DNA from: Parcubacteria group bacterium
GTDB taxonomy: Bacteria; Patescibacteriota; Minisyncoccia; Phycocordibacterales; UBA2135
Length of the DNA: 64,000 nt
Assembly: GCA_016204045.1 (NCBI GenBank)
Contig: JACQLQ010000001.1
Coordinates: forward strand, 21,515-85,514
Direction: 5' to 3'
Shown here: positions 36,057-64,000 of the stretch, piece after piece
Position numbering within the stretch: position 1 is the stretch's first letter
Layout of the letters: the number at the start of each line of letters is the position of its first letter
The notes under the pieces: generated by a model
The model's database searches: none
Told to the model about the DNA's origin: nothing
What the model saw: the letters and a program-made list of their open reading frames with translations, nothing else
Translations under genes and position numbers: made by a program

Positions 36057-36375
36057 TTTACCCGTTCCTTCCTATAAGCTGGATTGCCAAGTCAATTATA
36101 TCATAATCGGCTAAAAAGTCAATAAAAATGAGGTTATGTAGCGCAGAACATAACAACTACCTCACACCAAAATCACGTACTCGCAGATGGTACTTTCGTT
36201 AGTAAGAATGAGCACTGGGGCTAACAAAACAATTGGGTTGTGTTTACTGTCGTGATGGTGCACAGTGATTCTCTGCACAGAACCACTGTTTCAACAAAGT
36301 GCAATATTGTTTTACGTAGAAGCACGCGCTAGTATTAAAAGCAAGAGACGCTCCTCCTTTGCCCTCTTCATTTTC

Positions 36376-47789: not shown

Positions 47790-47850
47790 CACGAGAGAAC
47801 TTGCGAAAAGAGCCTCAATATGTTGATAAGCTGTTCATAAGGTGTGTATA
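47790..47850. promoter_or_regulatory. DnaA-box-like cluster upstream of dnaA (autoregulatory / second origin module)
   Basis: TGTTGATAA (8/9), TGTTCATAA and TGTGTATAG lie within the rpmH-dnaA divergent intergenic region. Confidence 0.35.
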
Positions 47851-48001
47851 GCAACAAGTTGAACAGTTTTGGCTCGCGTGAGCAGATTTTTTCGTTGAAA
47901 CGAAACATACCAACCCAACAGCGAACTTTTTTGACACTTTTTGTGCCACTTGCGCACCACAATTTTGTTTTTAAGGCGTTTATGGTAGACTATGAAGCAT
48001 A

Positions 48002-48136
48002 ATGGCAAAGAAATATCATCCCAAAACAAGGAAAAGGAAGAAGACCCACGGGTTTTTGGTAAGGAAAAGAAGCGCAGGGGGGCGCAAAACCCTAAAAAGA
48101 AGACAGCGCAAAGGACGAAAGAGGTTAGCGGCATAA
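48002..48136 (+). CDS. rpmH: 50S ribosomal protein L34
   Basis: Manual translation gives MAKKYHPKTRKRKKTHGFLVRKRSAGGRKTLKRRQRKGRKRLAA (44 aa). It is absent from the ORF track because it is under 60 aa. Confidence 0.85.
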   Translation: MAKKYHPKTRKRKKTHGFLVRKRSAGGRKTLKRRQRKGRKRLAA

Positions 48137-48157
48137 TTCCCCACAGAGTCTCCTCCT

Positions 48158-48499
48158 ATGTTCCCCAAAAACCGTAGGGTGGCGAGGAGTGAATTTGCCC
48201 CCATTCTAAAAAAAGGGAGAACACTCCACTCCCCCCTTCTGTCTTTGCGAGTGCTCGAAAAGAAGCAGTGCGAGAAGGAACCAAGCACGTTCGCTTTTGT
48301 TGTGTCGAAAAAAGTCGCCGCAAAAGCAACAGCCAGAAACCGCATTAAGCGACGCGGCTACGCTACCCTTCGCGAGATTCAAAGCATTTCCCCGTGTCAT
48401 TCTTGCGTGGTTTTCTTCAAAAAAGGAGCAGACACAGCGTCGTTTGCTGCGCTCAAAAAAGAAATCCTCTCTCTTTTTAAGGAGGCGCAGCTCGTGTAA
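48158..48499 (+). CDS. rnpA: Ribonuclease P protein component
   Basis: FAFVVSKKV...ARNRIKRR motif and its position after rpmH. Confidence 0.8.
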   Translation: MFPKNRRVARSEFAPILKKGRTLHSPLLSLRVLEKKQCEKEPSTFAFVVSKKVAAKATARNRIKRRGYATLREIQSISPCHSCVVFFKKGADTASFAALKKEILSLFKEAQLV

Positions 48500-48554
48500 G
48501 CTACAGATCGTGGAGCGAGAACCCTTGATATAACGGCTCGCGGTCATACATATC

Positions 48555-48785
48555 ATGCGATATATTGCCGTACTACTCATCAACTGCTATCAAACACTTT
48601 TCTCCCCCGATAGGGGGATGCTGCGGGTCAGGAGCAGCACCGTGTGCTGTTTTTATCCATCGTGTTCCCAATATGCAAAAGAGGCAATAGTAAAGTATGG
48701 CGTTTGGGGTGGTGGCATGCGGGCTCTCGCACGGGTTTTTCGCTGTCACCCATGGCAAAAAGAATGGATTGACCCCCTGCGATGA
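48555..48785 (+). CDS. yidD: Membrane protein insertion efficiency factor YidD
   Basis: CCFYPSCSQYAKEAIVKYG signature. Confidence 0.85.
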   Translation: MRYIAVLLINCYQTLFSPDRGMLRVRSSTVCCFYPSCSQYAKEAIVKYGVWGGGMRALARVFRCHPWQKEWIDPLR

Positions 48786-50166: not shown

Positions 50167-50218
50167 TGTAAAAGAACAGGAGACAAGGGATACATCGGAA
50201 CGTTCTAAAAAACAACCC

Positions 50219-51451
50219 CTAGTATAGGGGGTTGTTTTTTAGAAGCCAGAGCGTGTTGTCGATTTTATTCTTGAAAATAAGGTATGTTTCGTCTTTTGAG
50301 AGCACTGGATTCACAGCATCTATTGGTGTTCGAGCATCTCTCTTCGAAGAGACGAGGAACGTTTGTATTCCCCCATCGGCATCAATGCGCCACAAGTCGT
50401 CTGATGTCGCGGAGCCCCCGGCATACCACGTTTCAAGGGAAAACGATCTCTCTGGGACAGCACAGAAGAGCGTCCCCGTGTTTTTGTGACCCCAGACGCA
50501 CTTTTCTGGGAGTAGAGAAAGTGAGAGGGGTTGAGTGGTTGCTGTTTTTCGATTGAGAACGAAACTTTCAAGAATACCACTTTGGTATGTGGAATAAAGG
50601 AGCAGGTTGGCGTCTGGAGAGAGATTTGAGGTGAGACCGCGCCCTTGAGTGAGTTTTGCAAGTGCCCCGGTTTGCATGTTGAGTGCGTACGAAACACCCG
50701 TTATATTCTCCGATGGCCTTGTGGTTAAGAGTGTAATTCCAGCGCTTTGCCATCCGCCCAACCACTCTGCAAACGGGAAGTTGAAGACATTTTTGAGATT
50801 CTTGTTTTCAAACGACACACGCGTACCCACTGCACGAGTGCCGAAGCGCGCGAGATAAAAGACCTCTTTTGCGTCTGGTGATGGGGCGACAAATAGGATG
50901 TCGTCGGGCATGAACACGCCCGTAATTTTTCCAGGGCTTTGTCCGCCGTTCTTTATAATCTCTCCGAGAAAGGTTTTTATCGTGTCATCTTCCCCCAAAT
51001 AGCGAAGGATAAGCCTGTTGCCAGTTTCGTTCCACACGACCTCCTCTACTGTAAGAAGTGTGGTGTTGGTAATACGGCTCTTTTCACCACTTTCAAGGCG
51101 AATATCGTAGACATGCCCTGTCGCTCTCTCCATATATCGCACTGTTGTTGAAGCCCCCTCCCCAAGAATTGTCGCGCCAGAAACAGGAATGCGTGTGAGT
51201 TGAGACAATGTTGCGCCAACAGGAATCCCCATCTCAGGAGCTTCTTCGCCGGTGCCCTCTCCCTCCTCTGTTAATCCCCGGTCATCCACAATGGGACGAT
51301 CTGCCACCTCGCCCCCAAAAGGAAGAAAGTCGAGCAACACCTCACCTGTTGATTGTCCCGTGTCGCGTGCAATGTAAAACGCCGCGCCAAAAAGCCCCCC
51401 AATCAAGATGGTAAAGATGATAACGATGATGAGTAGGGTTTTTTGTGACAT
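50219..51451 (-). CDS. Hypothetical membrane-anchored extracellular protein, probable beta-propeller (TolB/PD40-like repeats); last gene of the T4SS-like cluster
   Basis: N-terminal TM helix, a Glu/Gly-rich linker and a repetitive beta-rich C-terminal region. Start moved to MSQKTLL. Confidence 0.35.
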   Translation of the reverse strand: MSQKTLLIIVIIFTILIGGLFGAAFYIARDTGQSTGEVLLDFLPFGGEVADRPIVDDRGLTEEGEGTGEEAPEMGIPVGATLSQLTRIPVSGATILGEGASTTVRYMERATGHVYDIRLESGEKSRITNTTLLTVEEVVWNETGNRLILRYLGEDDTIKTFLGEIIKNGGQSPGKITGVFMPDDILFVAPSPDAKEVFYLARFGTRAVGTRVSFENKNLKNVFNFPFAEWLGGWQSAGITLLTTRPSENITGVSYALNMQTGALAKLTQGRGLTSNLSPDANLLLYSTYQSGILESFVLNRKTATTQPLSLSLLPEKCVWGHKNTGTLFCAVPERSFSLETWYAGGSATSDDLWRIDADGGIQTFLVSSKRDARTPIDAVNPVLSKDETYLIFKNKIDNTLWLLKNNPLY

Positions 51452-51486
51452 GGGATAACAATTTTTAAGCAACGCGTAGAGTGGCC

Positions 51487-52272
51487 TCATCCACCAAAAC
51501 AAGAATACCGAAGTATTTCACAAACCGTGCCCTCTCGAGGAAAAACACATCTTGCCGTCCACGTCCCACTGTTCGTTGTGCACCTGGTGCGATAATTCTC
51601 AATTTCCGCAGTGTCCTCAACGGCAAAATCTTCAGACTCCGGTCTTCCAGAGGGAGCCGGTCTCTCTGGTTCACGTAACATACAACAAAACGAGGAAGAA
51701 TCCGGCTTCCCGAGAGAACCACCAGAACAGAATCGATCAGCGATGGGTGCTTGTCTTACGCCGCGGACGTCTAGACACAAGCGATCCTCGCTCGAATTAA
51801 CATTTGTCACCCAGGTGTAAGAATATCCCGGCGGCGCACTTGGTGGGGTGGCAGGACTGATGCCCTCTAGGCGCAAATCAATATTTAAGAGGTTGGGGTT
51901 TATGGTTTGGAGAATAAGCACTGACGATAGGATAAGGATGAAACCCCATATGGCATTTTGCATTCTCTTCATCCCCTCTTCTTTTCCGCTGATTATCTCA
52001 CTTGCCATGTACTGTATACCCCCAACGACAATAAGAAGGACCGCCAATACAGTTGCTGCGCCGACAGCAAGACTAAAAAACCCCTCAATATAACGTCCCA
52101 CGGGTGTCTCCGCCTGTGGGGTACCACCCAAAGGCGGAAGTTGCTCAAGGGGCACGTACCCCCCGGGGGTTCCTTGGGCAAAGGCGATTCCGAAAATACC
52201 AAAAATACCGACAAGTAAAAGAATGGCAAGAAGACCAAAGAGAGGCAACCTTTTTAAGTATGAGCGGTGCAT
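51487..52272 (-). CDS. VirB2/TrbC-like pilin family protein with Cys-rich C-terminal extension
   Basis: Signal peptide, then two hydrophobic helices (FFSLAVGAATVLAVLLIVVGGIQYMAS; AIWGFILILSSVLILQ) in a TrbC/VirB2-like arrangement, then about 130 aa containing at least 8 Cys. Confidence 0.45.
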   Translation of the reverse strand: MHRSYLKRLPLFGLLAILLLVGIFGIFGIAFAQGTPGGYVPLEQLPPLGGTPQAETPVGRYIEGFFSLAVGAATVLAVLLIVVGGIQYMASEIISGKEEGMKRMQNAIWGFILILSSVLILQTINPNLLNIDLRLEGISPATPPSAPPGYSYTWVTNVNSSEDRLCLDVRGVRQAPIADRFCSGGSLGKPDSSSFCCMLREPERPAPSGRPESEDFAVEDTAEIENYRTRCTTNSGTWTARCVFPREGTVCEILRYSCFGG

Positions 52273-52284
52273 ATGTGTACAAAA

Positions 52285-53286
52285 CTAAATTTTCTCCTCA
52301 CTACCAAAGTTTACCAAAAATTCGGCTGTTGTGGCCTGGAGTGCGCGCGCCGCATTTTCAACAACCAAAGAGATCTGCGCCACGCTTGCGGATTGCTGAG
52401 ATCCTTCCTGGCGCAGGGTAATCTCGCCGGATCTTTCTCCACCAGGTACCATACGTCCATTTAACGACCAAACAAAAGAAATTTTGCCCAAGCGCACGTC
52501 GTTCAAAGAAAAATACAGTGGTTCAGCACGCAGTGTCGTTTCCTCTGTCTCCAGATCAATGACTCCTGGTAAGGCCTTATTATACAGGACCCCCAACAGT
52601 GGGTGCCGTTCATACAGAAGAACGCGTGAGTCATGGGGAACAAGACGCATTTCTTTTTTAACAGAAAAAGAATTTTGAAGGGAGGAAACCTCAACCATGA
52701 CGTCAACGGGTCGGAATCCCGATGGCATTGTCAGCTCAACCACGTCCCTTCCGTACCCAGAGAGATTTCCAAGCACAGTACGGTCCTTAGACCACGTGAA
52801 CACTAGCTCACTTGAAGCGAGGCGTGTGCCGTTCCCAAGTACGAAGTGTGGGACCGCAGTGACTCTGACCGTGCTTCCTGGCGACGCCAGAGCCTTGCCT
52901 CGATAAAACGGTGGAGTATACGTGTCTGCCTCCCAAAGGAAGTCGACCTCTGCTGGTCGGATGACTGTCTCGCCACGCAACTGTTTGCCGTCGATGGTTC
53001 GCACAAGAGCCGTGATGGTTGTTGCACTTCCCAAGGGACCCGCCGAAAAGCGAAATGTTTTTACCCCTCGCCCGCTTGAAACAACGCGCCCACTTTGTGT
53101 CCATGAAATAGTGGAGCGATTAAGGTCGGCCGCGGAGGAAGAAAGTGAAAGAGTGACCTCCTGTCCAGGTCCGGGCGTTGTTGGTGAAACAGCAACCTGG
53201 AGAACCGGAGCAATAGTCTGTGCACTCGTCCACAGAGGGAAGAGTAAAGATAGCGAGATGAAGAGTGTTGTTACAAGCTTAGACAT
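52285..53286 (-). CDS. Hypothetical secreted protein (signal peptide, beta-rich/Ig-like)
   Basis: MSKLVTTLFISLSLLFPLWTSAQT signal peptide; Ser/Thr/Val-rich. Confidence 0.35.
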   Translation of the reverse strand: MSKLVTTLFISLSLLFPLWTSAQTIAPVLQVAVSPTTPGPGQEVTLSLSSSAADLNRSTISWTQSGRVVSSGRGVKTFRFSAGPLGSATTITALVRTIDGKQLRGETVIRPAEVDFLWEADTYTPPFYRGKALASPGSTVRVTAVPHFVLGNGTRLASSELVFTWSKDRTVLGNLSGYGRDVVELTMPSGFRPVDVMVEVSSLQNSFSVKKEMRLVPHDSRVLLYERHPLLGVLYNKALPGVIDLETEETTLRAEPLYFSLNDVRLGKISFVWSLNGRMVPGGERSGEITLRQEGSQQSASVAQISLVVENAARALQATTAEFLVNFGSEEKI

Positions 53287-53309
53287 TTTTAGAATGCAGA
53301 ATCTAGAAT

Positions 53310-55145
53310 TTAGCTTTTGGAAGCTTCCTCGATGGGTGGTTCTCCCGCCGGAGTCTCGCGCGCCCTCTTAATTGCGAGAAGCTCTGATGGGTCTGACGTG
53401 ATAATTTGGTCTTCGGCGTATGAGGCAATAGTTTTCATTGCGACGTGTTTTAACCCGGCAAAGAAAATCCCCTCACCAACGTCTGATTCGAGAAGGAGAA
53501 ACTTCTCCTCATTTGTGAGGTTAAAGGTTTTTTGCACGAGATCGATAGCAGAGGTTGATTGTTTAAGGAGAAGACGGATCGACGAGTTGTTGATAATTGC
53601 CTCACCATAAGGTGAACGAAGAAAGTCGTTTACGTCCTGTGTAATTGTTGCGAGTCCAAGGTAGTACTTTCGGCCACGCTTCGCAAGCGAGAAGAGGAAA
53701 GAGGCTGTATCTTCTTGTTTCATCATCCACCACGCCTCATCGATAACCATAAGACGTTTTTTGAGATTCTTTCGGACTGCGTTCCAAATGAAATGCGTGA
53801 CGATATACATCGCAACAGGCTTAAGCTCATCCTCCATGTCTCGGACGGAGAAAACAACGAACTTTTTGTTGATGTCCACATTTGTCGGGCGGTTGATGAA
53901 GCCGCTCCATGTCCCCTTGGTGTATTTGGTAAGGCGCTGGGAGAGTGATTCCCCGCCCTTCATTCCAGCGAGCACGAGCTCAAAGTCAGAAAGTAGTGGA
54001 GGTGCAATGTTTGAGAAGTTTGAATCAGGCGTAATATCTTTGAGCGCATAGGTTTCAGTGATCGCACGGTCGATAATAGAGTCTTCTTCCGGAGTAAGCC
54101 CACCCAACATAATACGGAAGAGTCCGACTAAGTTAACAATATTAGAGCGTAGCACGTCTGCTGGCGCCTCCCCCTCTCCCACTGGGGGTAGGTCAAAGGG
54201 ATTAATGTGGTGCTCGGAGGTCAATGAAATATTGAAGTATCGTCCACCCGTCGCTTCTGCAAGGTATTCGTACTCACGTTCCGGGTCAATGACGATAACA
54301 TCAATGTCGAACATGAGCGATCGCAAGATTTCAAGTTTTGTGGCGTATGATTTCCCAGCACCTGATGTCGCGAACATAATAGAGTTGTAGTTCGGCATCG
54401 AGAAGCGATCAAACAAGACGAGGCTTGAGTTATGACGGTTTACTCCATACAAAATACCTCGGTCGGATGTCAGATCGAAAGACACGAATGGGAAGAAAGA
54501 GGAAAGTGGCGACGAGTTAAGTTTCGAATGAACATTCAGGCGGTCATCTGCGATGGGGAGCACACTTCGATACCCCTCCTCTTGTTGGAAGAGGGCTGGG
54601 CGGATATATACCAACTTCGACTCGAGCATCGTTTTAATCTCCTGTTCGATTTTGTCCACCTCGCTCTCGGTGTCACCATAGATAGTGATATAGAGACCCA
54701 CGTCGAAAAGTCGCTCTTGTGCTTGCTGGAGCTTGTCTCGGAGCGCTTCGAGGTCTTGGTATGCAGTGTCGAGCTTTGGGTCGCGCACAAGACCCTTTTC
54801 TTCGCGGATGCTGATCTGGCTCTGCACCTCGGCAACCTTTTTTTGGAACTCACGAAGAGCCTGGCCAGTGTCAATTGGGTGCACAAAGATGGAGATATCA
54901 AAGATTTTGTCGAGATTGATGATGGGAGAAAGCCAGTTGTCTGAAAGAAAGCGTGGATAGGAAATTGCAAAAAAGGTACGCGCTATTTTCTCGCTTAAGT
55001 AGAATTGTCTCGGCTCGATCTTCAAGGCGGCGGGAGCGATAATGTCGCGCAACTCCAAGACTCCCGCTTCATAAATTTCTTGCGGAAGAATTGGTGAAAT
55101 CTCCGTTTTCTCTTCTCGTTTTAAGATTTTGTCGAGCAAACCCAT
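53310..55145 (-). CDS. VirB4/TrbE/CagE-family type IV secretion ATPase (ATPase domain)
   Basis: Walker A MFATSGAGKSYATK, Walker B LMVIDEAWWMM, 611 aa. Confidence 0.75.
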   Translation of the reverse strand: MGLLDKILKREEKTEISPILPQEIYEAGVLELRDIIAPAALKIEPRQFYLSEKIARTFFAISYPRFLSDNWLSPIINLDKIFDISIFVHPIDTGQALREFQKKVAEVQSQISIREEKGLVRDPKLDTAYQDLEALRDKLQQAQERLFDVGLYITIYGDTESEVDKIEQEIKTMLESKLVYIRPALFQQEEGYRSVLPIADDRLNVHSKLNSSPLSSFFPFVSFDLTSDRGILYGVNRHNSSLVLFDRFSMPNYNSIMFATSGAGKSYATKLEILRSLMFDIDVIVIDPEREYEYLAEATGGRYFNISLTSEHHINPFDLPPVGEGEAPADVLRSNIVNLVGLFRIMLGGLTPEEDSIIDRAITETYALKDITPDSNFSNIAPPLLSDFELVLAGMKGGESLSQRLTKYTKGTWSGFINRPTNVDINKKFVVFSVRDMEDELKPVAMYIVTHFIWNAVRKNLKKRLMVIDEAWWMMKQEDTASFLFSLAKRGRKYYLGLATITQDVNDFLRSPYGEAIINNSSIRLLLKQSTSAIDLVQKTFNLTNEEKFLLLESDVGEGIFFAGLKHVAMKTIASYAEDQIITSDPSELLAIKRARETPAGEPPIEEASKS

Positions 55146-55155
55146 GATTAATTGA

Positions 55156-55803
55156 TTATATCTTAGCCGCTTTCTCTGATGGAATTGGTTTTTCTACTTC
55201 GCCGGGGTTAAACATCTTGAAGAAAAGCTCTATAAGCTCTTCTGTCCCAAGGCGTGCGACGCGAATACCCGTTGACGCAAGTCCCTGCTCGACAACGGAA
55301 GCGCGCTGCTCAAGTTGAGTACGGTTTTCTTCGAATGACTCTAGGTGTGCCTCTTTCCCCTCTTGCCGCGTCCTCCCAGTGAAACGACTAATAAGGTCAC
55401 CACCCGCCTTGCCGAGGACCGAGGGAGAATATGGGATTACGATAAAAAAAGTTTTTGTCATGATATTGACGGTTTCCGAAAAACTTTTGATGAATTCTAT
55501 ATACTCCCCCACCTGGAGGCGCATAAGATCCGATGTTTGCTCCTTTTCCCGCTCCTGAAGGAGTGAAATGTAGGGTCTAATATCGAGTTTGCGCGACTGT
55601 ACGAAGAATTGTATCGAGAAATCGAGAGAGTTTAAGGTGTTCTGAAACTGCGAAAGGATTGCCTCTTGTTCATCTTCTGATTTGAGTGCCAGGTTGTGGG
55701 AAGAGGCCATAAGCACCAAGCGGAGAGAACCATCCTTAAGGATGATAATGCCGTTTCGGATTTCCCTAATTGGAACGAATTCTTGAGTTGATGTTGAAAC
55801 CAT
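55156..55803 (-). CDS. VirB4-family N-terminal domain encoded as a separate ORF (split VirB4 or frameshift)
   Basis: FVPIREIRNGIIILKDGSLRLVLMASSHNLALKSEDEQEAIL resembles the N-terminal domain of monoderm VirB4 homologues (TcpF/TrsE-type). It ends 10 nt before the ATPase ORF, in a different frame. Confidence 0.5.
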   Translation of the reverse strand: MVSTSTQEFVPIREIRNGIIILKDGSLRLVLMASSHNLALKSEDEQEAILSQFQNTLNSLDFSIQFFVQSRKLDIRPYISLLQEREKEQTSDLMRLQVGEYIEFIKSFSETVNIMTKTFFIVIPYSPSVLGKAGGDLISRFTGRTRQEGKEAHLESFEENRTQLEQRASVVEQGLASTGIRVARLGTEELIELFFKMFNPGEVEKPIPSEKAAKI

Positions 55804-55853
55804 AATTCGGTCAGTAGTCTTTAGTCCTTAGTCTGTAGGCTATCGACTACGAG

Positions 55854-56309
55854 CTATCGACTATTTTTTTCTTGTCCGGCGTAAATGCTGTCGTGGACGT
55901 CTAAACTCCAGGCAATATCTTTGAGCTTGCTTTCCGATAGCTTTGGCACTACGAGACCCGACTCCTGCGGCAACGCCTCCGGTCTTTCGGCAGCCTTAGG
56001 CTGCTTCTTCCATAAATACAGTTTACCACGTGTCACATACCGGAACAGCGCCTCAAGTGCGTAGACGAAGCTGCGGTCATTCACTTTGTAAAACGCGAGC
56101 GCAAGTGACAACCCCCCCACTCCCACGATGAGCGGAATGGAAAGGAAAATGGGGAGAAGCCGCCACAAGAGAAAAACCATACCCGCCCCCCCAGCAAGAT
56201 AGATGAACTGTCGAAACGTCAGCGGGCCGAAAATCCTATCTTCTATCTCAATAAATTGTGGTGTTTGGAAACGCATAATTAAGTTACCAGTCTTTAGCCT
56301 ATGGACCAC
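55854..56309 (-). CDS. PrgI/VirB3-like small membrane protein
   Basis: MRFQTPQFIEIEDRIFGPLTFRQFIYL followed by two TM helices, the typical PrgI-family N-terminus, immediately upstream of VirB4. Confidence 0.55.
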   Translation of the reverse strand: MVHRLKTGNLIMRFQTPQFIEIEDRIFGPLTFRQFIYLAGGAGMVFLLWRLLPIFLSIPLIVGVGGLSLALAFYKVNDRSFVYALEALFRYVTRGKLYLWKKQPKAAERPEALPQESGLVVPKLSESKLKDIAWSLDVHDSIYAGQEKNSR

Positions 56310-56312
56310 AAA

Positions 56313-57080
56313 CTATTCTATTGGCTCACGGTATGGGTCGCCTTCTCCGTAATGCTCAACTTTTTCGTGGGGCGTATGCACAGTTTCTTGAAGTTGTGTG
56401 CGCACCAGATCGGTTGGCGCACTCGGGGTAATCCCTGACGATACAGACTCATTCTTTGGCGTAGGAAGGGTTGCGCTCTCTTGCCCCCCCTCGATCATTT
56501 GCAAGAGTTCTAGCTTGCTTTCTATTGGTTCGGTAATCGGGTATTCTTTGTCTATTTCTGGAGCGGGCTCCCCCTCTGTTTCTTCCGGTAGATTCTCCGG
56601 AACGTCTCCCGCTTTTTCGGATGCTTTTGGTTCAAACGCCTGATTAGATTTCGTGGTGTCTGTATTCCCCACGGCTCCTCCTGTGACAATAGCGGGAACT
56701 GTAGATTTTGGCGCGACTTGATTGTCCGACACAGTCTCAACCGAAGAGGAGTCCCCCGTTATCTGGTGAATTTTTTTCAACGATTCACGGATTGGTCGAA
56801 AAATCTGTTCATTGATATCAGTGGCAATTGTATGCGCACTTCCCGCATCAACACCTAGGCGGTCAGCAATTTTTCCCACGAAATCTTTTGGGTGTGTTGC
56901 GCCAATCATGACCCACCCCACCTCATCATTCAGATCCGCAATTTTATCAACATGAAGATTGTATTTTTTCCCAATATTCTCAATTTGTTCTGTTACTCCA
57001 ACTGATGAATACGCCTCCTTCACATTTTCAGGAAGATTTTTATAAAGTGTACGAAATTTTTGTGGGTCGATGATATTCAT
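56313..57080 (-). CDS. Hypothetical protein with low-complexity Glu/Pro/Thr-rich C-terminus
   Basis: No TM helix; lies inside the T4SS-like cluster. Confidence 0.3.
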   Translation of the reverse strand: MNIIDPQKFRTLYKNLPENVKEAYSSVGVTEQIENIGKKYNLHVDKIADLNDEVGWVMIGATHPKDFVGKIADRLGVDAGSAHTIATDINEQIFRPIRESLKKIHQITGDSSSVETVSDNQVAPKSTVPAIVTGGAVGNTDTTKSNQAFEPKASEKAGDVPENLPEETEGEPAPEIDKEYPITEPIESKLELLQMIEGGQESATLPTPKNESVSSGITPSAPTDLVRTQLQETVHTPHEKVEHYGEGDPYREPIE

Positions 57081-57093
57081 ATGTCACTTTTGA

Positions 57094-59094
57094 TTATGCG
57101 AAGCCATGGGCCCTCAGGGTGTTGCTTCCTTCACGGCTTTGGGCCCAAGTAGATAATCTTTTATTGCCGATAGCCGAAAGGTAGGTTTTAACATTGGAGA
57201 GGCTTCTCCCGACGGGTCGTGGGCCAAATACCGGGTCGGTGTACATCATTGAAGAAAGCTGATCAAAAAACCCGGTTGGCACAGCTGCGTCGTTGTGTTC
57301 CAATATTGCCCTAACGTGTCCCCCATGAAATTGCCTAAACATTGCCGCAGTCACCGTCGGGTCCGTAAACCAGCTTCCATTCAATTTCTCTACGGTGGCA
57401 GGGGTAACCGTCCTAATGGTATCTGGGTGTGCCCGTTCTGCTGGGGTGGTAGAGTATTGCCACCTGAGGCCTTCAATCGGCTTTGTACTTATGTTCCTAC
57501 TTTTAAGTTCAGCAATGGCCTGCGTTACGTCATCGGCGTTAAAATCTCGAGCCGCGCTAAGATTCCCCTTTTGAGCAAGAAGGCGTACTGCGGCAGCGCG
57601 ACGCGTGCCAGAAAGCGTTGAGGCAGCAACGTTCTTAACCGCGTCATCAGACAAAGCCTTGAGTTCAGCCTCCATTTTTTGGATATCAGTTTCTGCCCGT
57701 GCGCCAACTCGGCCCAATGCCTTAGTTGTTGCTGTGCCCAGAACGGGGATTCTACGGAGTGTTCCGGCAATGCGTCCAGTGACCCCCTTATCTGCCTTTT
57801 GAAATCCTTCTGCCGCCCTAGCTGCCTCTGCGACGAACGCAGTTCCAATAGCAGCCAAGGGTCTTTTAAAGACAAACCCCGCTCCTCCAGAGGCAGCCCC
57901 TGTTGCAAATCCGATGGCTTTTCCGCTCCAATTTGTGGCAATCTTACCCGCCTCTCCGGAGAGTGACTGCGCGTAACTGACCGCCATTTTTATCAAAATA
58001 TAGAGTACTGCAAACTTAAACAGGACACCTAGAATAAGGAGGATGAGGTCATTTAACTCATCGCCCAAACTTCCGTTAGCGGGGGTGCTTGTGATGCCGA
58101 CACTGTCAAAGAAAGGGGTGTCGACGATGAAATGCACGATGAGATACAAGAAGAAGAGGAACAAAGCCACAACAACCGATTGTTTCCAAAGCGTGCTCCA
58201 CCATTCGTTTGACTTCCCACGCATCCCAGGCACAATCCACGCAGCAAATGCGGCAGGTGCGGCGATCATGAGGAGCCAAAGTACCGGCACACGAATGAGG
58301 AAGATTGCGCTTGCGGTAAAGAGTGCCCACGCGAACATGAAGACGATGACTGACGCAGAAATAAACACAAACGCCATTCCTATATGGCCGCTTGCCGAAT
58401 CTTTCCATTTTGCGAAGCTTTCGTCGGCAAAAAGGGTTTGCGGATCGAATCCTGCAACAAGAGCGTCACTAATATTTTTTACGGGCACACCCCCAATATA
58501 TTTTTGAGTTGCTCCGGTAATCTCGAAGCTGTTATAAAACGCAAAAGCAAGGGTGTTGCCCGCATCGATGACAACACGAGTGAAGAATAAGCTGAAGTTA
58601 ATGAGAAGGGCCACGACAATGAGATTTGCAAGCGCGGTGCGCATGTTTACTCCACCCATCTGAAGCATGGTCGCGAACGCGATATAGAGGAGGATGAAGA
58701 TAAATGTAAGATTTGCGAGGTCGCGAACAATTTTCCACCCCTCTCTTGCAAACTCGGAATCAATTACTTGGCTCGAAAGAGAAAAAGCGATGGCGTAGTT
58801 AAACACGTTCCCGACCAGATGAAGCACCAGCGTAGATAATTTAAAGATAAGGCTAGTTAACTGCACTAAGCAGCCACTAATTTTGGTAACGCCACAGTCT
58901 GGAAGTGGATTGTCTTCTCCGGGTCGCTGACCCTGAATTGTTATTGGGCCGCTATTCGTCCCCCCTGGTTCTACTCCTTGAGCTTCAACGGTACCAAAAG
59001 AGGCAAACATTGAGCTGAAAAGCACCCCCAAAAACACCAACGTCAAGATGGCTTGTTTCCCGTAGGTTATTTTTTTGTATAACGTTGGCGACAT
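57094..59094 (-). CDS. Large polytopic membrane protein, VirB6/TrbL-like candidate
   Basis: Signal peptide, at least 8 TM helices and a C-terminal soluble region; size and position are consistent with a VirB6-like channel component. Confidence 0.4.
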   Translation of the reverse strand: MSPTLYKKITYGKQAILTLVFLGVLFSSMFASFGTVEAQGVEPGGTNSGPITIQGQRPGEDNPLPDCGVTKISGCLVQLTSLIFKLSTLVLHLVGNVFNYAIAFSLSSQVIDSEFAREGWKIVRDLANLTFIFILLYIAFATMLQMGGVNMRTALANLIVVALLINFSLFFTRVVIDAGNTLAFAFYNSFEITGATQKYIGGVPVKNISDALVAGFDPQTLFADESFAKWKDSASGHIGMAFVFISASVIVFMFAWALFTASAIFLIRVPVLWLLMIAAPAAFAAWIVPGMRGKSNEWWSTLWKQSVVVALFLFFLYLIVHFIVDTPFFDSVGITSTPANGSLGDELNDLILLILGVLFKFAVLYILIKMAVSYAQSLSGEAGKIATNWSGKAIGFATGAASGGAGFVFKRPLAAIGTAFVAEAARAAEGFQKADKGVTGRIAGTLRRIPVLGTATTKALGRVGARAETDIQKMEAELKALSDDAVKNVAASTLSGTRRAAAVRLLAQKGNLSAARDFNADDVTQAIAELKSRNISTKPIEGLRWQYSTTPAERAHPDTIRTVTPATVEKLNGSWFTDPTVTAAMFRQFHGGHVRAILEHNDAAVPTGFFDQLSSMMYTDPVFGPRPVGRSLSNVKTYLSAIGNKRLSTWAQSREGSNTLRAHGFA

Positions 59095-59111
59095 CGTGGT
59101 CGTAATTGTGT

Positions 59112-60665
59112 CTATTCTGTTTCGTCTGGTGGCGGGGTGGATGGAAAGACGTTGCAGGCCGCGATTTTTTCCTCCGTTTCGAGGTCAAGCGCAGTTGTCT
59201 GTTCTTCTGCTCCGCGTATCTCGTCTTCTGCTCTTACTACGTCAAGACTTGTGTGAAAGACACTTGCCGGAGAAGAGGTGCCCACTACTTCTGTTGCTTC
59301 ACGGAACGCCCTAATTGCCTCCTCAATCTCGGCGGGCGAATTCGCACTTTCCATATCAGCGAGGATAGAGGAGAGGCGTGACAGGTTCGCATCAGCTTTG
59401 GCGACGTCACCCGCGATACGAGTTTTTTCCGGTGTAATCCGTGTCGCTATAGTGGTTGTGGCGCTCAGGGCTCTCGATAGAGCTTCAGAACGATTTTCGG
59501 GAGTCAAAGCAACCTCCTCGCTTTTTCTTACATAACAAGCGTTTAATTGGCGAAGAAGATTTTCGGAGTCCTGAATGTGTCCAAGTGTCGTGCGCTTTGC
59601 TCTTCGGTAAGCGGTTTCCGTGTCACGGATAAATGTCACCGACTCAATGGCGACTATTTTGGCGCTTTCAGAGATGGCGCCGGATTCATTGCGTAGCCGG
59701 TTAGTGTACGAATTCCCACCGCCCGAAAGGGCGCGCAATCCACCAGCGAGCGCCTGTTCCGTGAGCTGTGTCATCAGGGCCGTTATAATCTCGTCAATTT
59801 CGTCTGCTATCTCGATTCGGCGTTTGTTGCTGTCGAGGGTATCATTCAGCTGGTGCTCGACGACCTTACCAGGAGTTGCGGTCTCGCAACGCTGTCGCGG
59901 CGCATCTACCTCCGGAGTGTCGGGGTTGTCCCACTGGACCGTCGTACACTCTTTCCATTCGAGAAAACCGTCTCCCCAACCAAGTCGCTCGAGCTCGCTC
60001 TGTCGGTTTATATCCAAACGTCGAGAGGCCTCATTGCTTGCGATAAGGTAACGTCCGTAGGCGTTGTTTTGTCCCCAAAGCACCATTCGTACAAAACGTT
60101 CGGTTCCGCCGTATCTGAAGTCGAACAAAAATTGCGCAAACGCCTCCTCAGCAATGTTCGGAGAGAGTAAATCCCCTCCCCGAATCGTCGCGCACGGGTC
60201 AGTGAGAGCAATGCTTCGTGCAAGGAGTATCTGTGAGCGAGAGTTTAGGCCTCTTGTGCTGCCAAGTTCATTAACAAAATCGTCGAAAGTGCCATAACAG
60301 GCGTTGGTGAGATGGCGATCAAGGTCTGTTATGAATGCGGGGTTTCCATCAAAGCCGGAGTTAATCCAGTCGATAATGTTTGCGGTCATTTGGCGGATAA
60401 TTGAGTTAATGAGCGCGAAAGCGATAGGGTCAAACACATACTCTTTAATCCACTCTGCATTGGCCCTAGCCACTTGCGTTACCGAGTTTGCCGCGGAGAG
60501 GGCGTTTTCCACCCAGTTGGTTGGGTCGTAGACAACGCTACCACTTGCCACCGCGTGCGCTTCTCTCGGCACCAAAAGGAATCCTGCCGAGGGCGCAAAA
60601 AGTGCCACAAGAAGGATAAGGGCGCACACCTTCTTAATTTGTAGAGGTAAAGCGTTCATATTCAT
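59112..60665 (-). CDS. Hypothetical secreted protein (517 aa) of the T4SS-like cluster
   Basis: MNMNALPLQIKKVCALILLVALFAPSAGFLLVPREAHA signal peptide; alpha-rich with coiled-coil-like segments. Confidence 0.35.
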   Translation of the reverse strand: MNMNALPLQIKKVCALILLVALFAPSAGFLLVPREAHAVASGSVVYDPTNWVENALSAANSVTQVARANAEWIKEYVFDPIAFALINSIIRQMTANIIDWINSGFDGNPAFITDLDRHLTNACYGTFDDFVNELGSTRGLNSRSQILLARSIALTDPCATIRGGDLLSPNIAEEAFAQFLFDFRYGGTERFVRMVLWGQNNAYGRYLIASNEASRRLDINRQSELERLGWGDGFLEWKECTTVQWDNPDTPEVDAPRQRCETATPGKVVEHQLNDTLDSNKRRIEIADEIDEIITALMTQLTEQALAGGLRALSGGGNSYTNRLRNESGAISESAKIVAIESVTFIRDTETAYRRAKRTTLGHIQDSENLLRQLNACYVRKSEEVALTPENRSEALSRALSATTTIATRITPEKTRIAGDVAKADANLSRLSSILADMESANSPAEIEEAIRAFREATEVVGTSSPASVFHTSLDVVRAEDEIRGAEEQTTALDLETEEKIAACNVFPSTPPPDETE

Positions 60666-60670
60666 CTCTC

Positions 60671-61669
60671 TTACTGTTTCTGAACAAGCTCCAAGGCCGC
60701 GTCAATCGCATGTGTAACGAAATATCCCGGCTCGTTTCCCGAAAAGGTAATACCGTGTTTTGTGAAAAGAAGTTCTGACTCCGAGAATGCGTTGTAGAGC
60801 AACTCGGCGTTTTCTTGATATTGTCGTACCGAGATCAAAGTTGCCATGGGGTCTTCAAAAGTGCGAGTGAATGTTTGTATGGTGTAGCGCATGCGTGCAA
60901 AACCTGTAAGGAACTCTGCGTGAAGTGTGGCGACGCTTGCCGGCGGAGTGAGCTTCTCAAGGTCATAGACGACGGCACCATACGCTGCTGCGACGGGATA
61001 TAGTTTCTCTAGTTCGCTTTTGTCGCCCGTTGTAATGGCGTCGCGGAGGATGAGCGCCTCATGTTTTGTTTTAAATGCATGCTTTTGAAGAATAGCCCCC
61101 AAATTGTTGCCATACTGGCGTATGCCCGCCTCCCCTCCGTCAGGGACTGTTTTTATTTGGGCGCTCGAATATGTTGGAAGCTCGGAGAGTGATGATGAAA
61201 CAGATTGTTCCGCGAGCGAAAGGGCAAGCGCGTCAGGGTTGGGACCAGAAGAGCTCTTTTTTGAGGCAAGGTAATCAACAAAAAGAGATTGTGCCACCTC
61301 CTCGGTCAAGTTGTGTTCGCCCCCACTTTCTCCGGCAAGTTGAGACGCTGTTTCTTTGGTGGTCGGGTCACGTTCTGCGAACACCTCTTTTCTGTCAGAC
61401 ACCCCATCTCCATCGGTGTCCGAGTTGGTTGGATTGGTTCCAACAAGTCTCTCTTCCCAGTCAGCGAGTCCGTCTTCGTCGGTGTCCTTTGAAAAATCTG
61501 GGTTTTTTGCCGCAAGGGTTATATGTTCTGTTTCACCAACTGTCGTCTCAACGCTTGACTGGTAACGCAAAGCAAAGAACACCACGGCAATGAAAAGGGC
61601 CGTCGCTATGAAGAAAAAAGCGAACTTTTTCTGTGCAAAATATTTCACGCTCGGTAATGCGCTATGCAC
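60671..61669 (-). CDS. Membrane-anchored protein with thrombospondin type-3-like Ca-binding Asp repeats
   Basis: N-terminal TM helix, then DTDEDGLADWEE and DTDGDGVSDRKE repeats. Confidence 0.4.
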   Translation of the reverse strand: MHSALPSVKYFAQKKFAFFFIATALFIAVVFFALRYQSSVETTVGETEHITLAAKNPDFSKDTDEDGLADWEERLVGTNPTNSDTDGDGVSDRKEVFAERDPTTKETASQLAGESGGEHNLTEEVAQSLFVDYLASKKSSSGPNPDALALSLAEQSVSSSLSELPTYSSAQIKTVPDGGEAGIRQYGNNLGAILQKHAFKTKHEALILRDAITTGDKSELEKLYPVAAAYGAVVYDLEKLTPPASVATLHAEFLTGFARMRYTIQTFTRTFEDPMATLISVRQYQENAELLYNAFSESELLFTKHGITFSGNEPGYFVTHAIDAALELVQKQ

Positions 61670-61755
61670 TTTAAATTATAGCAAGACGACACCCCTTTTG
61701 ATATGGGCTTTTGAAAGGTCTTGTGTGGATAAAGACCAAGAACTATAAGCGAGGA

Positions 61756-63387
61756 TTACAAAGCAGGAGCTGGGCGTTTTTTGAAATAGAAGAAGAGTTT
61801 CCCGCTAATCGATATTACTAGCGCCATGAAGAGGATTAGGTCCCCAAAGCGCGTATAGGGGGTGGCGCCAGTCGTCGGTGTGGTGGTTGCGAACAAAACA
61901 GCATTGCCAACACTAGCTGTTTCTGCAATAACAGCACCGTTTTCGTTAAGGACAAGGGAAATTGTGCCGTTTCCCGAGCGTATAAATGGGCGTCCGTGTT
62001 CAGCGGCACGTATACTACCCATATTTTTACTTTGTTTTTCCATGAGTTTTGAATTGTGGAACCATGAGTGTGAAGCAACATTTACAAAGACGCCAGGGCT
62101 TTTTTGTGCCATTTCACGATACAGTATGGGGCTCATGACGTCAGAGCAAAAGAGACCCCCGACCCTAACCCCAGCCACCTCGCCGGTTTCCATGGAGAAT
62201 CCCCGCGCATAGGAATGTCTTTCGGCCAGGCGATCAAACAAAGCACTTTTCCCAGCAGCTTTCTCTATGATTTGGTAAAAAAATGGTCGATACTCCCCTT
62301 GCGGAACCAACAATTGCTTGTCTTGTGTCGGCATGTCTCCCGTTTTCGTATTGAAATAGTACATGCGCAGGTGCATGGACGAGGAAGTGTCCCGAACAGA
62401 GCCGGAATCGATAATTAACCGCTCTTTTTCTCCTAGAATTGTATTGAAAAAATACCCAGCCCCTTCTTTGGGGAGAAGAGATTGTAAGAAAAGCGAGTCT
62501 TCCGGGAAAATGATGATATCCGGATTTTCCCCAGCTTTTCTTATTTGCGCAACCAATGACTCTAGGGCGAGAAAATTCCTTGTTTCCCCAATTTTCCCTT
62601 GAAAACCAGGGGGAAAATTGGTTTGCATGACAGCGACACGCAGGGAATGCTCATGATTTTGCTTTATACCCACGGAAAAGGGTGCAAAAAAAGTACTTAG
62701 AGCGACAAACGCCACCAAACCCCCTAAAAGTACGACTTTGCCCCTAAGGGCGCCGTGCCCCCGGAGGAGTATCCAAGAAACAGTGCTTGTCACCCCGACA
62801 ACTATGAACGAAAGAAGATAAACACCCCCAAGACTTGCAAATGAGCGAAGGAACGCATGTTCAGCAAGGGCATAGCCAAGTACGCCGACGCTCCAGTGCC
62901 CTCCGACAATCGTCCCCTCCCCATAGGCGAAAAGCGAAAACGCCCACGATCGAGCATATTCAAAAAGTATCCACAATGACGGGAAGAGCAGTATGTCAAA
63001 AGGTGTTTTTGTAAACAAGAAGCGTGCAGAAAGTCCCCAAAGAGCGGGAAAAATACCAAGAAAAAGAGAAATCGTACCCCAATACAGGAGAATGGCGATT
63101 CTTTGGAGTGCCGGGTCGGTAACGCCAAGCCAGTTCAAGGGAAGTGTGTGCCATAGCCACCACAAAACTCCCCCAAAGAAGATGGTTCCCCATAGCAAGC
63201 AAAGGAAGAATAATCGTTTGTTAAGAACACCCTCGTTGTAGATGCTCACGAGAAGAGGAGTGGGCGATAAGAAAATAAGCCACCAAAGAACGTCATATGA
63301 GAAAGCAAGAGCTCCGAGCAGGGCGCCAACAATGACGAGGCAATGGAGCATAAACGGTGAACCAAAAAACTTGAGAGATTGAATCAT
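61756..63387 (-). CDS. lnt: Apolipoprotein N-acyltransferase-like (polytopic N-domain + carbon-nitrogen hydrolase domain)
   Basis: About 7 TM helices, then a CN-hydrolase region RVAVMQTNFP...IIIFPEDSLF. The ATG overlaps the rsmA stop (ATGA). Confidence 0.55.
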   Translation of the reverse strand: MIQSLKFFGSPFMLHCLVIVGALLGALAFSYDVLWWLIFLSPTPLLVSIYNEGVLNKRLFFLCLLWGTIFFGGVLWWLWHTLPLNWLGVTDPALQRIAILLYWGTISLFLGIFPALWGLSARFLFTKTPFDILLFPSLWILFEYARSWAFSLFAYGEGTIVGGHWSVGVLGYALAEHAFLRSFASLGGVYLLSFIVVGVTSTVSWILLRGHGALRGKVVLLGGLVAFVALSTFFAPFSVGIKQNHEHSLRVAVMQTNFPPGFQGKIGETRNFLALESLVAQIRKAGENPDIIIFPEDSLFLQSLLPKEGAGYFFNTILGEKERLIIDSGSVRDTSSSMHLRMYYFNTKTGDMPTQDKQLLVPQGEYRPFFYQIIEKAAGKSALFDRLAERHSYARGFSMETGEVAGVRVGGLFCSDVMSPILYREMAQKSPGVFVNVASHSWFHNSKLMEKQSKNMGSIRAAEHGRPFIRSGNGTISLVLNENGAVIAETASVGNAVLFATTTPTTGATPYTRFGDLILFMALVISISGKLFFYFKKRPAPAL

Positions 63388-64000
63388 AAATCTGAAATTG
63401 TCTGCGCGAGCCTTTTCCACTCGTCGACCGAAAGATTTTCTGCTCGAGCGTTTACATTGACGGACGCCTTTTCAAAAGCATTTTTGTCGATGCCAGTGTG
63501 TGCCAAGTTACCCAAGAGTTTTTTCCGTGGATGCGCGAAGCCGGCGCGGAGAACAGTAAAAAATCTGTCTTCAGAAGTGGTGTCAAATGCACCACGGGAA
63601 ATGTTCTCTATGCTTAGGATTGCCGAGTCTACCTTTGGTGTCGGATCGAAGGAGCCTGCTCGTATTGTTTTGACATAGCGTGGTTCACCGTAGACCTTTA
63701 CCGATATTGAGAGGAGAGACTCTCGCCCACCCCCGATAATACGCCGCGCTACCTCTTTTTGGATAATGAGCGCGATCGTTTCTGGTTGTGGGTCAATCGA
63801 GAGGAAGCGTCGCAAAAAGAAACCCGTGATGTAGTAAGGAATGGAACCGACGAGCTTGTAACTCCCAGCTCCCAAGTTGTAGTTTTTTGGATCAAAAAGA
63901 AGAATATCAGCGGAAACGACCGTTAGTTTTCCATTTCCCACTTCCTCTGAGAACGTTTGCGCCAGTTCCGCAGCAAGAGCCTCGTCTTTCTCAACGGCAA
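63384..64000 (-). CDS. rsmA: 16S rRNA (adenine1518/1519-N6)-dimethyltransferase RsmA/KsgA, 3' part (gene continues beyond window end)
   Basis: C-terminal region VSADILLFDP...FDPTPKVDSAILSI... matches KsgA; the start codon lies outside the window. Confidence 0.7.
   Translation of the reverse strand, partial: AVEKDEALAAELAQTFSEEVGNGKLTVVSADILLFDPKNYNLGAGSYKLVGSIPYYITGFFLRRFLSIDPQPETIALIIQKEVARRIIGGGRESLLSISVKVYGEPRYVKTIRAGSFDPTPKVDSAILSIENISRGAFDTTSEDRFFTVLRAGFAHPRKKLLGNLAHTGIDKNAFEKASVNVNARAENLSVDEWKRLAQTISDL

Follow-up and report, generated by a model that had tools for sequence, protein, structure and literature searches.

A chromosomal ten-gene type IV secretion operon of the Paceibacteria type, with a strongly conserved motor and fast-changing exposed components

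In this study we analysed a window of 64,000 nucleotides (the whole stretch examined, from contig JACQLQ010000001.1 of a Parcubacteria group bacterium; all positions are those of the window) and describe a type IV secretion system (T4SS) encoded in it. With a confidence of about 95%, positions 50219-61669 hold one ten-gene operon (g1 to g10) for a chromosomal, vertically inherited T4SS typical of Patescibacteria (Candidate Phyla Radiation, CPR), in the Paceibacteria/Parcubacteria arrangement, and not a conjugative element. The locus is an ordinary member of an already published system; no new kind of system is described. New here, as far as sequence comparison goes, are five unannotated genes (g1, g2, g4, g8 and g10) as class-wide core components and a hypervariable tail of the pilin, and further the model of g8 as three immunoglobulin-like domains and the size of the g2 family, for which the databases have no model.

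Results

Ten co-directional open reading frames (ORFs) occupy the region on the minus strand (Table 1), with intergenic gaps of -16 to +50 nt. Because no gap exceeds 50 nt and a bidirectional terminator stands at the end, we regard them as a single operon. A first-pass annotation of this DNA had described the same tightly packed, partly overlapping cluster and counted eleven genes where we find ten. On the 3' side the operon is followed by the origin-proximal genes jag/khpB, yidC, dnaA and dnaN, on the 5' side by lnt and then ksgA. A scan of one genome per species, in which more than 522 relatives were found, returned 80 loci, all of them from metagenome-assembled genomes (MAGs) of the Patescibacteria/Parcubacteria type (Campbell-, Taylor-, Zambryskii-, Wolfe- and Nomurabacteria and other Paceibacteria). 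For synteny and identity we used 37 loci from different species with full 10-kb flanks, and the order ksgA - g1..g10 - (jag) yidC - dnaA - dnaN was found in all of them. By tblastn g3, g5, g6, g7, g8 and g10 were detected in 37/37 loci, g2 in 35, g9 in 31, g4 in 30 and g1 in 25; counts below 37 reflect the limits of tblastn sensitivity, and blastp at the ORF level finds more (62 matches for g4).

The components differ strongly in their conservation. Compared all-against-all among the 37 loci, the VirB4 body (g7) has a median pairwise identity of 80.0% (minimum 71.5%). The loci were chosen by VirB4 similarity to the window, a choice that could raise the VirB4 value, but the comparison is one among the loci themselves. 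The corresponding medians are 61% for the TrsD-like g6, 58.5% for DnaA, 51% for PrgI (g5), 48% for KsgA, 46% for DnaN and 44.5% for YidC, followed by 30% for g8, 29.5% for g10, 25% each for g2, g4 and g9, 23% for g1 and 22% for g3. By this measure the cytoplasmic motor tolerates less change than DnaA, which initiates replication, and the exposed parts change very fast. The first-pass annotation had proposed the secreted proteins as lineage-specific components, and this is borne out.

The body of the VirB4 ATPase, g7, matches NCBIfam NF045971 (VirB4-like conjugal transfer ATPase, CD1110 family) at 3.3e-112 and 376 bits (cut-off 325) and in Pfam P-loop_TraG (1e-26), AAA_10 and DUF87; the Walker A (ATSGAGKS, residues 259-266) and Walker B (LMVIDE, residues 465-470) motifs are both intact. 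A 'Parcubacteria group bacterium' MAG encodes exactly this protein. Significant relatives number at least 8,000; the best 120 listed show 78-100% identity and lengths of 596-659 aa, and every one of these 120 that carries a source name comes from a Patescibacteria/Parcubacteria-type MAG. The best plasmid-borne VirB4 proteins reach 29-36% identity to g7, and the annotated ones belong to the CD1110 family from Firmicutes. With similarity taken as a proxy for a tree, this strongly suggests that g7 falls inside the monophyletic VirB4 clade of Patescibacteria. The stand-alone g6, 10 nt upstream of g7, matches VirB4 N-terminal regions only: the NCBIfam VirB4 model Mbov_0397 from a mycoplasma integrative and conjugative element (ICE; 3.6e-11), TrsD (1.1e-4), CD1110 and VirB4_CagE, and Pfam TraC_F_IV (3.8e-6). 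Since g6 covers positions 102-280 and g7 the adjoining positions 285-892 of the same Mbov_0397 model, VirB4 is cleanly split at a domain boundary. The split is lineage-wide, as the best 120 relatives of g7 are all 596-659 aa long, and g6 is a separate ORF of ~213 aa in 78 of the 80 loci. TATAAT-like elements also lie directly upstream of g7 (~55150-55165).

Two further components carry family signatures above their cut-offs. The two-helix protein g5 matches PrgI at 1.7e-9 (38.5 bits, cut-off 27 bits); its true start is probably the ATG at codon 12 (56276). The pilin g9 matches T4SS_pilin at 2.4e-6 (28 bits, cut-off 26.6 bits) and consists of a long signal peptide, hydrophobic helices at residues 65-83 and 104-122 and a C-terminal tail of 135 aa with eight Cys; among its orthologues 39 of 41 match PF18895 and 4 of 41 match TrbC/VirB2. 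These family matches show the identities of VirB4 (as two polypeptides), PrgI/VirB3 and the VirB2-like pilin. Hence the split VirB4 with Walker motifs, the PrgI/VirB3-like protein and the pilin with a Cys-rich tail, all named in the first-pass annotation, hold up, and the component families together with the Patescibacteria relatives bear out its reading of a minimal T4SS-like apparatus of monoderm and CPR bacteria. Orthologous pilins are 140-575 aa long, their tails range from ~10 to >280 aa where measured, and the tails cannot be aligned; on this comparison the tail is hypervariable. In one orthologue the C-terminal tail is an NlpC/P60 plus CHAP peptidoglycan hydrolase, possibly a fused VirB1 function, and in five loci (L014, L018, L028, L062 and L004) a second pilin paralogue adjoins the first.

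Table 1. Features of the T4SS operon and its ends (TM, transmembrane; Ig, immunoglobulin).
Feature	Window position	Strand	Length	Description	Basis
g1	60671..61669	-	332 aa	TM anchor 16-34, two calcium-binding TSP3 repeats ~60-95, C-terminal domain	
g2	59112..60665	-	517 aa (515 aa as deposited)	Sec signal peptide, all-alpha	
g3	57094..59094	-	666 aa	Polytopic membrane protein	Hydropathy, alignment
g4	56313..57080	-	255 aa		Hydropathy, alignment
g5	55854..56309	-	151 aa	PrgI/VirB3-like, two TM helices	Pfam PrgI PF12666
g6	55156..55803	-	215 aa	Stand-alone TrsD-like VirB4 N-terminal domain	NCBIfam/Pfam
g7	53310..55145	-	611 aa	VirB4 ATPase body	NCBIfam CD1110-family VirB4, Pfam
g8	52285..53286	-	333 aa	Sec-secreted, three tandem Ig-like beta-sandwich domains	
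g9	51487..52272	-	261 aa	VirB2-like T4SS pilin	Pfam T4SS_pilin PF18895
g10	50219..51502	-	427 aa	TM anchor, acidic/Gly-rich linker, predicted beta-propeller	
Promoter region, lnt-g1 intergenic	61670..61755	-	86 nt		Read by eye
Inverted repeat	50203..50244	.		Perfect 17 nt, 8-nt spacer, flanking A/T runs	

The large membrane protein g3 is polytopic as first proposed, with a signal/TM1 and ~6 TM segments within residues 15-368 (~7 hydrophobic helices), a variable hydrophilic C-terminal domain of 300 aa and the invariant residues W120, R124, N166-F167-S168, F170, D177, N180, R268 and P280. The VirB6 assignment made with it did not come out directly: g3 gave no match to TrbL/VirB6 at E<=0.01 and no sequence match in the PDB. 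Four of its 30 orthologues match TrbL/VirB6 PF04610 (best 5.4e-5), topology and gene position fit VirB6, and an 'extended VirB6' architecture has been described (PMC12857230). From this we infer, transitively, that g3 is an extended VirB6-like channel protein.

Among the five proteins first thought to be secreted or anchored, g1, g2, g8 and g10 are so; g4 is predicted to be cytoplasmic because it has no signal peptide or TM segment. None of g2, g4, g8 and g10 gave a family match, and when orthologue profiles of g1, g2, g3, g4, g8 and g10 were compared with all PDB entries nothing was significant beyond the g1 repeats and a weak TolB match of g10. For g1 the calcium-binding repeat is the sole PDB match; TSP3_bac is found by Pfam at 7e-10 and in 23/35 orthologues, and the C-terminal domain has the invariant residues Y186, P243 and H250 and no recognised fold. 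The Ig-like domains of g8, as foreseen in the first-pass annotation, lie at ~28-110, 113-215 and 221-327 of a structure model with a confidence score (pLDDT) of 93, and the protein carries the conserved motif W-E-A-D-T-Y-T-P-P-F-Y-R-G-K-A-L. The C-terminal part of g10 is a probable TolB/PD40-like beta-propeller (TolB at 0.0029 in NCBIfam and 0.0022 in the PDB profile search; PD40 in 3/36 orthologues) with invariant K334-C335, C347 and W359-Y360; its true start is probably the ATG at codon 18 (51451), because M18 is near-invariant in the orthologue alignment. In g4 a conserved N-domain of ~105 aa is followed by a variable acidic/Pro-rich linker and a near-invariant C-terminal D-P-Y-R-E-P-I (window 56313-56336) that looks like a docking or recognition motif; the protein has no Pfam, NCBIfam or PDB match.

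The family of g2 is very large: when 1.84 billion cluster representatives were searched with a profile, 6,096 matched at E<=1e-3 and 3,317 at E<=1e-30. No Pfam or NCBIfam model covers it. Its N-domain has an invariant W-I-N-S-G-F-x-G-x-P-x-F and conserved Cys, and a helical bundle forms the C-terminal part. In g2 and many orthologues the signal peptide is directly followed by V-x-D-x-x-N-x-x-Q/E-N, which is weakly VirB5/TrbJ-like. The TrbJ model of NCBIfam is matched at 2.3e-5 over residues 18-66 only (23.6 bits against a cut-off of 225), weak TrbJ matches occur in 3-4/44 orthologues and DUF4141 matches in 2/26, and g2 itself has no Pfam match. The AlphaFold2 model has a pLDDT of 64 and is good only for residues 330-510; Foldseek found nothing at E<0.05, only generic helical bundles, and the N-terminal profile gave 0 matches in the PDB at E<=10. 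A VirB5/TrbJ identity, below the cut-off and lacking both a PDB and a fold match, is hence not claimed here and is kept as a lead. Some orthologues reach ~840 aa, and individual ones contain Bacterial surface Ig-like or F5/8 type C (galactose-binding-like) domains. A surface-exposed, ligand-binding role would fit the family.

In 33-35 related loci a polytopic membrane protein, typically of ~140 aa and in some of up to ~320 aa, is encoded between virB4 and g8 (for example L016:11862-12281, L069:11839-12252 and L043:11896-12408). The window cluster lacks it: there are 23 nt at that position and tblastn found no homologue in the window at E<=0.01. The protein has no Pfam match.

The search for conjugation genes covered all window ORFs of at least 300 aa, several shorter ones and ~7 kb beyond the right edge, read from a short contig of the same organism. 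As the first-pass annotation had stated for the cluster, no relaxase, coupling protein (VirD4/TcpA) or integrase was found in the 64-kb window, and none in the ~7 kb beyond. Flanking repeats were absent, no tRNA lies within 20 kb, and the GC content of the cluster is 0.493 compared with 0.485 for the rest of the window. Because the block sits at the same site in 37/37 loci, without compositional shift, repeats, tRNA or integrase, we read it as a vertically inherited core operon that is not mobile.

The operon probably has its own control region in the intergenic space between lnt and g1. By eye we noted an extended -10 element, TGCTATAAT (window 61667-61685), that is absent from the list of a consensus promoter scan. 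The element stops 5 nt short of the GTG that starts g1, and no Shine-Dalgarno sequence was seen before this GTG when the sequence was read by eye, so that translation of g1 may begin on a leaderless mRNA. At 61724-61732, ~45 nt upstream of this -10, the sequence TTATCCACA is a perfect DnaA box; the 64 kb hold only three such boxes, and the overall box counts in the window are not above chance. In 14/43 related loci boxes with at most one mismatch are present in the 250 nt upstream of the g1 orthologue, set against a background of ~0.11 per 260 nt that is not restricted to intergenic DNA. This hints at a DnaA-linked regulation of the T4SS operon. At the other end, the inverted repeat is, by its structure, a bidirectional intrinsic terminator common to the operon and the convergent jag/khpB.

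Housekeeping functions account for the other large ORFs of the window (RecJ, PolA, RuvB, a class I aminoacyl-tRNA synthetase of the Trp/Tyr type, a Mur ligase, PBP1, PilM, a PilB-like ATPase and transporters), and the ~7 kb beyond encode ksgA, a UvrD-type helicase, a LysM-Peptidase_M23 protein and a PMM-like hydrolase. Since PilM (2.4e-43, 16359-17462) and a PilB/T2SSE-type ATPase with MshEN (3e-117, 36265-38055) are encoded in the same window, the organism has, to judge from these genes, a separate type IV pilus (T4P) system beside the T4SS. The lnt gene (LNT_N plus CN_hydrolase, 61756-63420) stands between ksgA and the operon, a place where 0/37 related loci have it; several relatives carry different small genes at this junction, which appears to be a variable insertion point. 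In the interval between dnaA and yidC (47835-48785) the longest ORFs are on the minus strand and have no family match; rpmH-rnpA(-yidD) are probably shorter plus-strand ORFs (for example 48158-48499 and 48555-48785), and stops interrupt a single frame across 47992-48499. The LysM-LysM-Peptidase_M23 hydrolase (L082:2869-4011) lies ~3 kb past the right window end on the opposite strand, with the UvrD-type helicase between it and ksgA. Domains of the LysM/Peptidase_M23 type are noted for VirB1-like proteins of Patescibacteria in PMC12102498, and the hydrolase could supply the wall-lytic function that was not detected in the cluster.

Discussion

The operon belongs to a system for which comparative and genetic data have been published. 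In Southlakia epibionticum the T4SS genes SEML1_0006-0019, pilins included, were essential for epibiotic growth in a transposon-sequencing (Tn-seq) screen, and that work describes a Gram-positive-like composition with unexpected pilins and no recognisable coupling protein or relaxase (Wang et al. 2023, Cell, PMC10633639). A survey of 3,035 Patescibacteria genomes found 2,425 VirB4 proteins that are monophyletic and nested in MPF-FATA; TrsD is the most abundant partner of VirB4, genes for PrgI/VirB3, VirB6 and PF18895/PF04956 pilins stand close to virB4, VirB8 and VirB1 mostly escape detection, relaxases are nearly absent, the Paceibacteria locus lies near dnaA, dnaN, ksgA, rnpA and rpmH, and an ancient transfer from monoderm conjugative elements is inferred (Quiñonero-Coronel et al. 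2025, Microb Genom, PMC12102498).

With the systems described in these two papers the window operon shares the MPF-FATA-type VirB4 with an adjacent TrsD-like gene, PrgI/VirB3, a putative VirB6-like protein, the PF18895 pilin, the lack of a relaxase or type IV coupling protein (T4CP) nearby, the chromosomal place by dnaA/dnaN/ksgA and the monoderm envelope. This Paceibacteria version differs in having one pilin gene with a long variable tail, whereas Saccharimonadia and Microgenomatia have arrays of 2-11 short pilins, and in having no peptidase/lysozyme (VirB1-like) gene downstream of virB4. The genes g1, g2, g4, g8 and g10 are not individually discussed in either main text, figures and supplements lying outside this statement. 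Gram-positive MPF-FATA systems (pCF10 Prg/Pcf, pGO1 Trs, the CD1110 family of Clostridioides CTn2 and Tcp of C. perfringens) have the same VirB4 family and PrgI, a separate TrsD-type N-domain in the case of pGO1, and a single membrane without VirB7, VirB9 and VirB10. However, their VirB4 is only 29-36% identical, the operon here is not on a mobile element, and it lacks the relaxase, T4CP, VirB1 hydrolase, VirB8-like protein and PrgB-type surface adhesin of these systems, which in turn lack a VirB2-like pilin. The two-helix pilin and the weak TrbJ motif of g2 recall the diderm VirB/Trb systems (MPF-T), but outer-membrane core proteins, VirB11 and VirD4 are missing from the cluster, and g2, roughly double VirB5 in size, matches no solved T4SS protein by sequence or fold. 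The absence of a cluster-encoded T4CP or relaxase and the non-conjugative use, here a proposed one, are shared with Bordetella Ptl, Brucella VirB, Helicobacter ComB and archaeal Ced; these are diderm or archaeal systems with other accessory sets, and the specific homology is limited to the VirB4 P-loop.

Taking these data together, we consider it very probable that this is a Patescibacteria-type chromosomal T4SS used for host interaction and not for conjugation. By analogy with characterised T4SSs, VirB4 hexamers would dock on a VirB3/VirB6 platform in the single membrane, draw pilin subunits out of it and drive their assembly into a wall-crossing pilus or tube. The proteins g1, g8 and g10 might form a wall-spanning scaffold in place of the undetected VirB8 and VirB1 functions, and the fast-evolving exposed parts (the pilin tail, g2 and the C-terminal domain of g3) might contact the host surface. 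As such the apparatus would be a contact-dependent conduit between parasite and host serving an obligately host-attached lifestyle. That this conduit acquires host material is possible, at somewhat less than an even chance. A T4SS and pilus conduit for exchange or uptake has been speculated on in a 2025 FEMS review (PMC12857230), and a cultivated Microgenomatia strain was reported to form host-penetrating tubular structures and to take up host RNA (2026 preprint, bioRxiv 10.64898/2026.06.21.733656).

Several points weigh against this picture. The functional data for Patescibacteria T4SS come from Saccharimonadia and Microgenomatia, not from Paceibacteria, and in the Microgenomatia preprint the tubes 'may be T4SS pili', a link that is only suggested there. 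Neither a VirB8 NTF2-like domain nor a VirB1-type lytic transglycosylase/CHAP/NlpC-P60 was found among the ten proteins, and the scaffold roles of g1, g8 and g10 are purely conjectural. The VirB6-like identity of g3 was reached through 4/30 orthologues, and the N-domain of g2 is poorly modelled. A coupling protein may be encoded on another part of the 387-kb contig or of the genome; its absence holds for the window and the ~7 kb beyond, and PMC12102498 places VirD4-like genes far from virB4 in most Patescibacteria. Any statement here on substrate and direction of transport is likewise conjectural.

Other uses of the apparatus have to be weighed. It might be an effector-export machine that injects proteins into the host or releases them onto it and so subverts or permeabilises it, with the pilus as a needle or adhesin, like the bacteria-killing Xanthomonas-type systems or VirB/Ptl of pathogens. 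Wang et al. write that the Southlakia system 'may instead export proteins' (PMC10633639), and systems without T4CP that send Sec-delivered substrates are known from Ptl and Brucella VirB (PMC12102498 and PMC12857230); the operon has four Sec-dependent envelope or secreted proteins, and the invariant C-terminal motif of g4 could be a secretion signal or an adaptor. However, no effector candidates, immunity genes or T4CP were found in or near the cluster (window and ~7 kb), the ten genes are all core and syntenic and thus not variable cargo, and there is no direct evidence for export in any Patescibacteria, so that we regard this use as rather unlikely. A pure adhesion organelle, a VirB2-type pilus with a host-binding variable tail and nothing transported, appears improbable to us. 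It would explain a cluster without a substrate-recruiting ATPase (T4CP), the hypervariable surface-type pilin tail and the NlpC/P60-CHAP hydrolase in one orthologue, and VirB4 alone is enough for pilus biogenesis in model systems (PMC12102498). Yet these genomes already have type IV pili for adhesion (PilM and PilB-like in the window; PMC12857230), the extreme conservation of the motor and the essentiality in Southlakia suggest more than redundant adhesion, and the Microgenomatia preprint reports host-penetrating tubes with transfer of material.

A role in DNA uptake (competence), as in Helicobacter ComB or archaeal Ced, would feed nucleotide-auxotrophic cells, serve transformation, or both. 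We hold it to be very unlikely, although ComB likewise has no relaxase or T4CP, CPR bacteria lack nucleotide synthesis, T4SS genes of ABY1 co-localise with comF, recG and radA (PMC12102498) and g7 has a weak local CedB match. This match (2.3e-10 over ~70 residues) is confined to the common P-loop region and falls far short of the cut-off. DNA uptake in Southlakia is attributed to T4P and ComEC, and the window has T4P genes of its own; deletion of comEC abolishes competence and leaves the cells viable, so that the essentiality of the T4SS does not come from DNA uptake (PMC12857230). The idea of a decaying remnant or domesticated piece of a Gram-positive-type ICE that has lost relaxase, T4CP and integrase is hardly credible. 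Its VirB4 is of the CD1110/MPF-FATA conjugation family, the literature infers an ancient transfer from monoderm elements, and a 'split' VirB4 can elsewhere signal a pseudogene. Here, however, the same block occupies the same chromosomal site in 37/37 species, VirB4 is more conserved than DnaA and has intact Walker motifs, the split is lineage-wide, at a domain boundary and with a conserved 213-aa product, and the GC content is like that of the rest of the window, with no repeats, tRNA or integrase. Reading the split VirB4 as a mark of an ICE or a pseudogene is rejected for its lineage-wide occurrence at a domain boundary. Domestication is ancient and complete and without sign of decay, and a decaying remnant is effectively refuted.

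Returning to a T4SS for host interaction, a more specific proposal can be made, which we consider doubtful. In it g1, g2, g4, g8 and g10 would form an obligate, class-wide, Paceibacteria-specific extracellular module that replaces VirB8, VirB1, VirB5 and adhesins. In this module g2 would act as the tip or stalk, as a divergent relative of VirB5, while g8 with its three Ig-like domains and the anchored propeller would build a wall-spanning sheath. The hypervariable C-terminal domain of the pilin on the pilus surface would determine host specificity, and the invariant DPYREPI tail of g4 would dock on the unusually conserved VirB4 motor.

Much of bacterial diversity belongs to the Patescibacteria, almost all of which appear to depend on host cells. 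To our knowledge no T4SS other than their chromosomal one has been shown to be essential for its own carrier, the evidence coming from Southlakia. About half of the conserved proteins of the operon are without a known role, and the g2 family, the triple-Ig g8, the probable propeller g10, the tailed pilin g9 and the C-terminal peptide of g4 offer themselves as structural and genetic targets. In conclusion, the comparative work defines a ten-gene core for the Paceibacteria, the largest class, and a gradient of conservation from motor to surface in the system that is the leading candidate for the physical link of Patescibacteria to their hosts.

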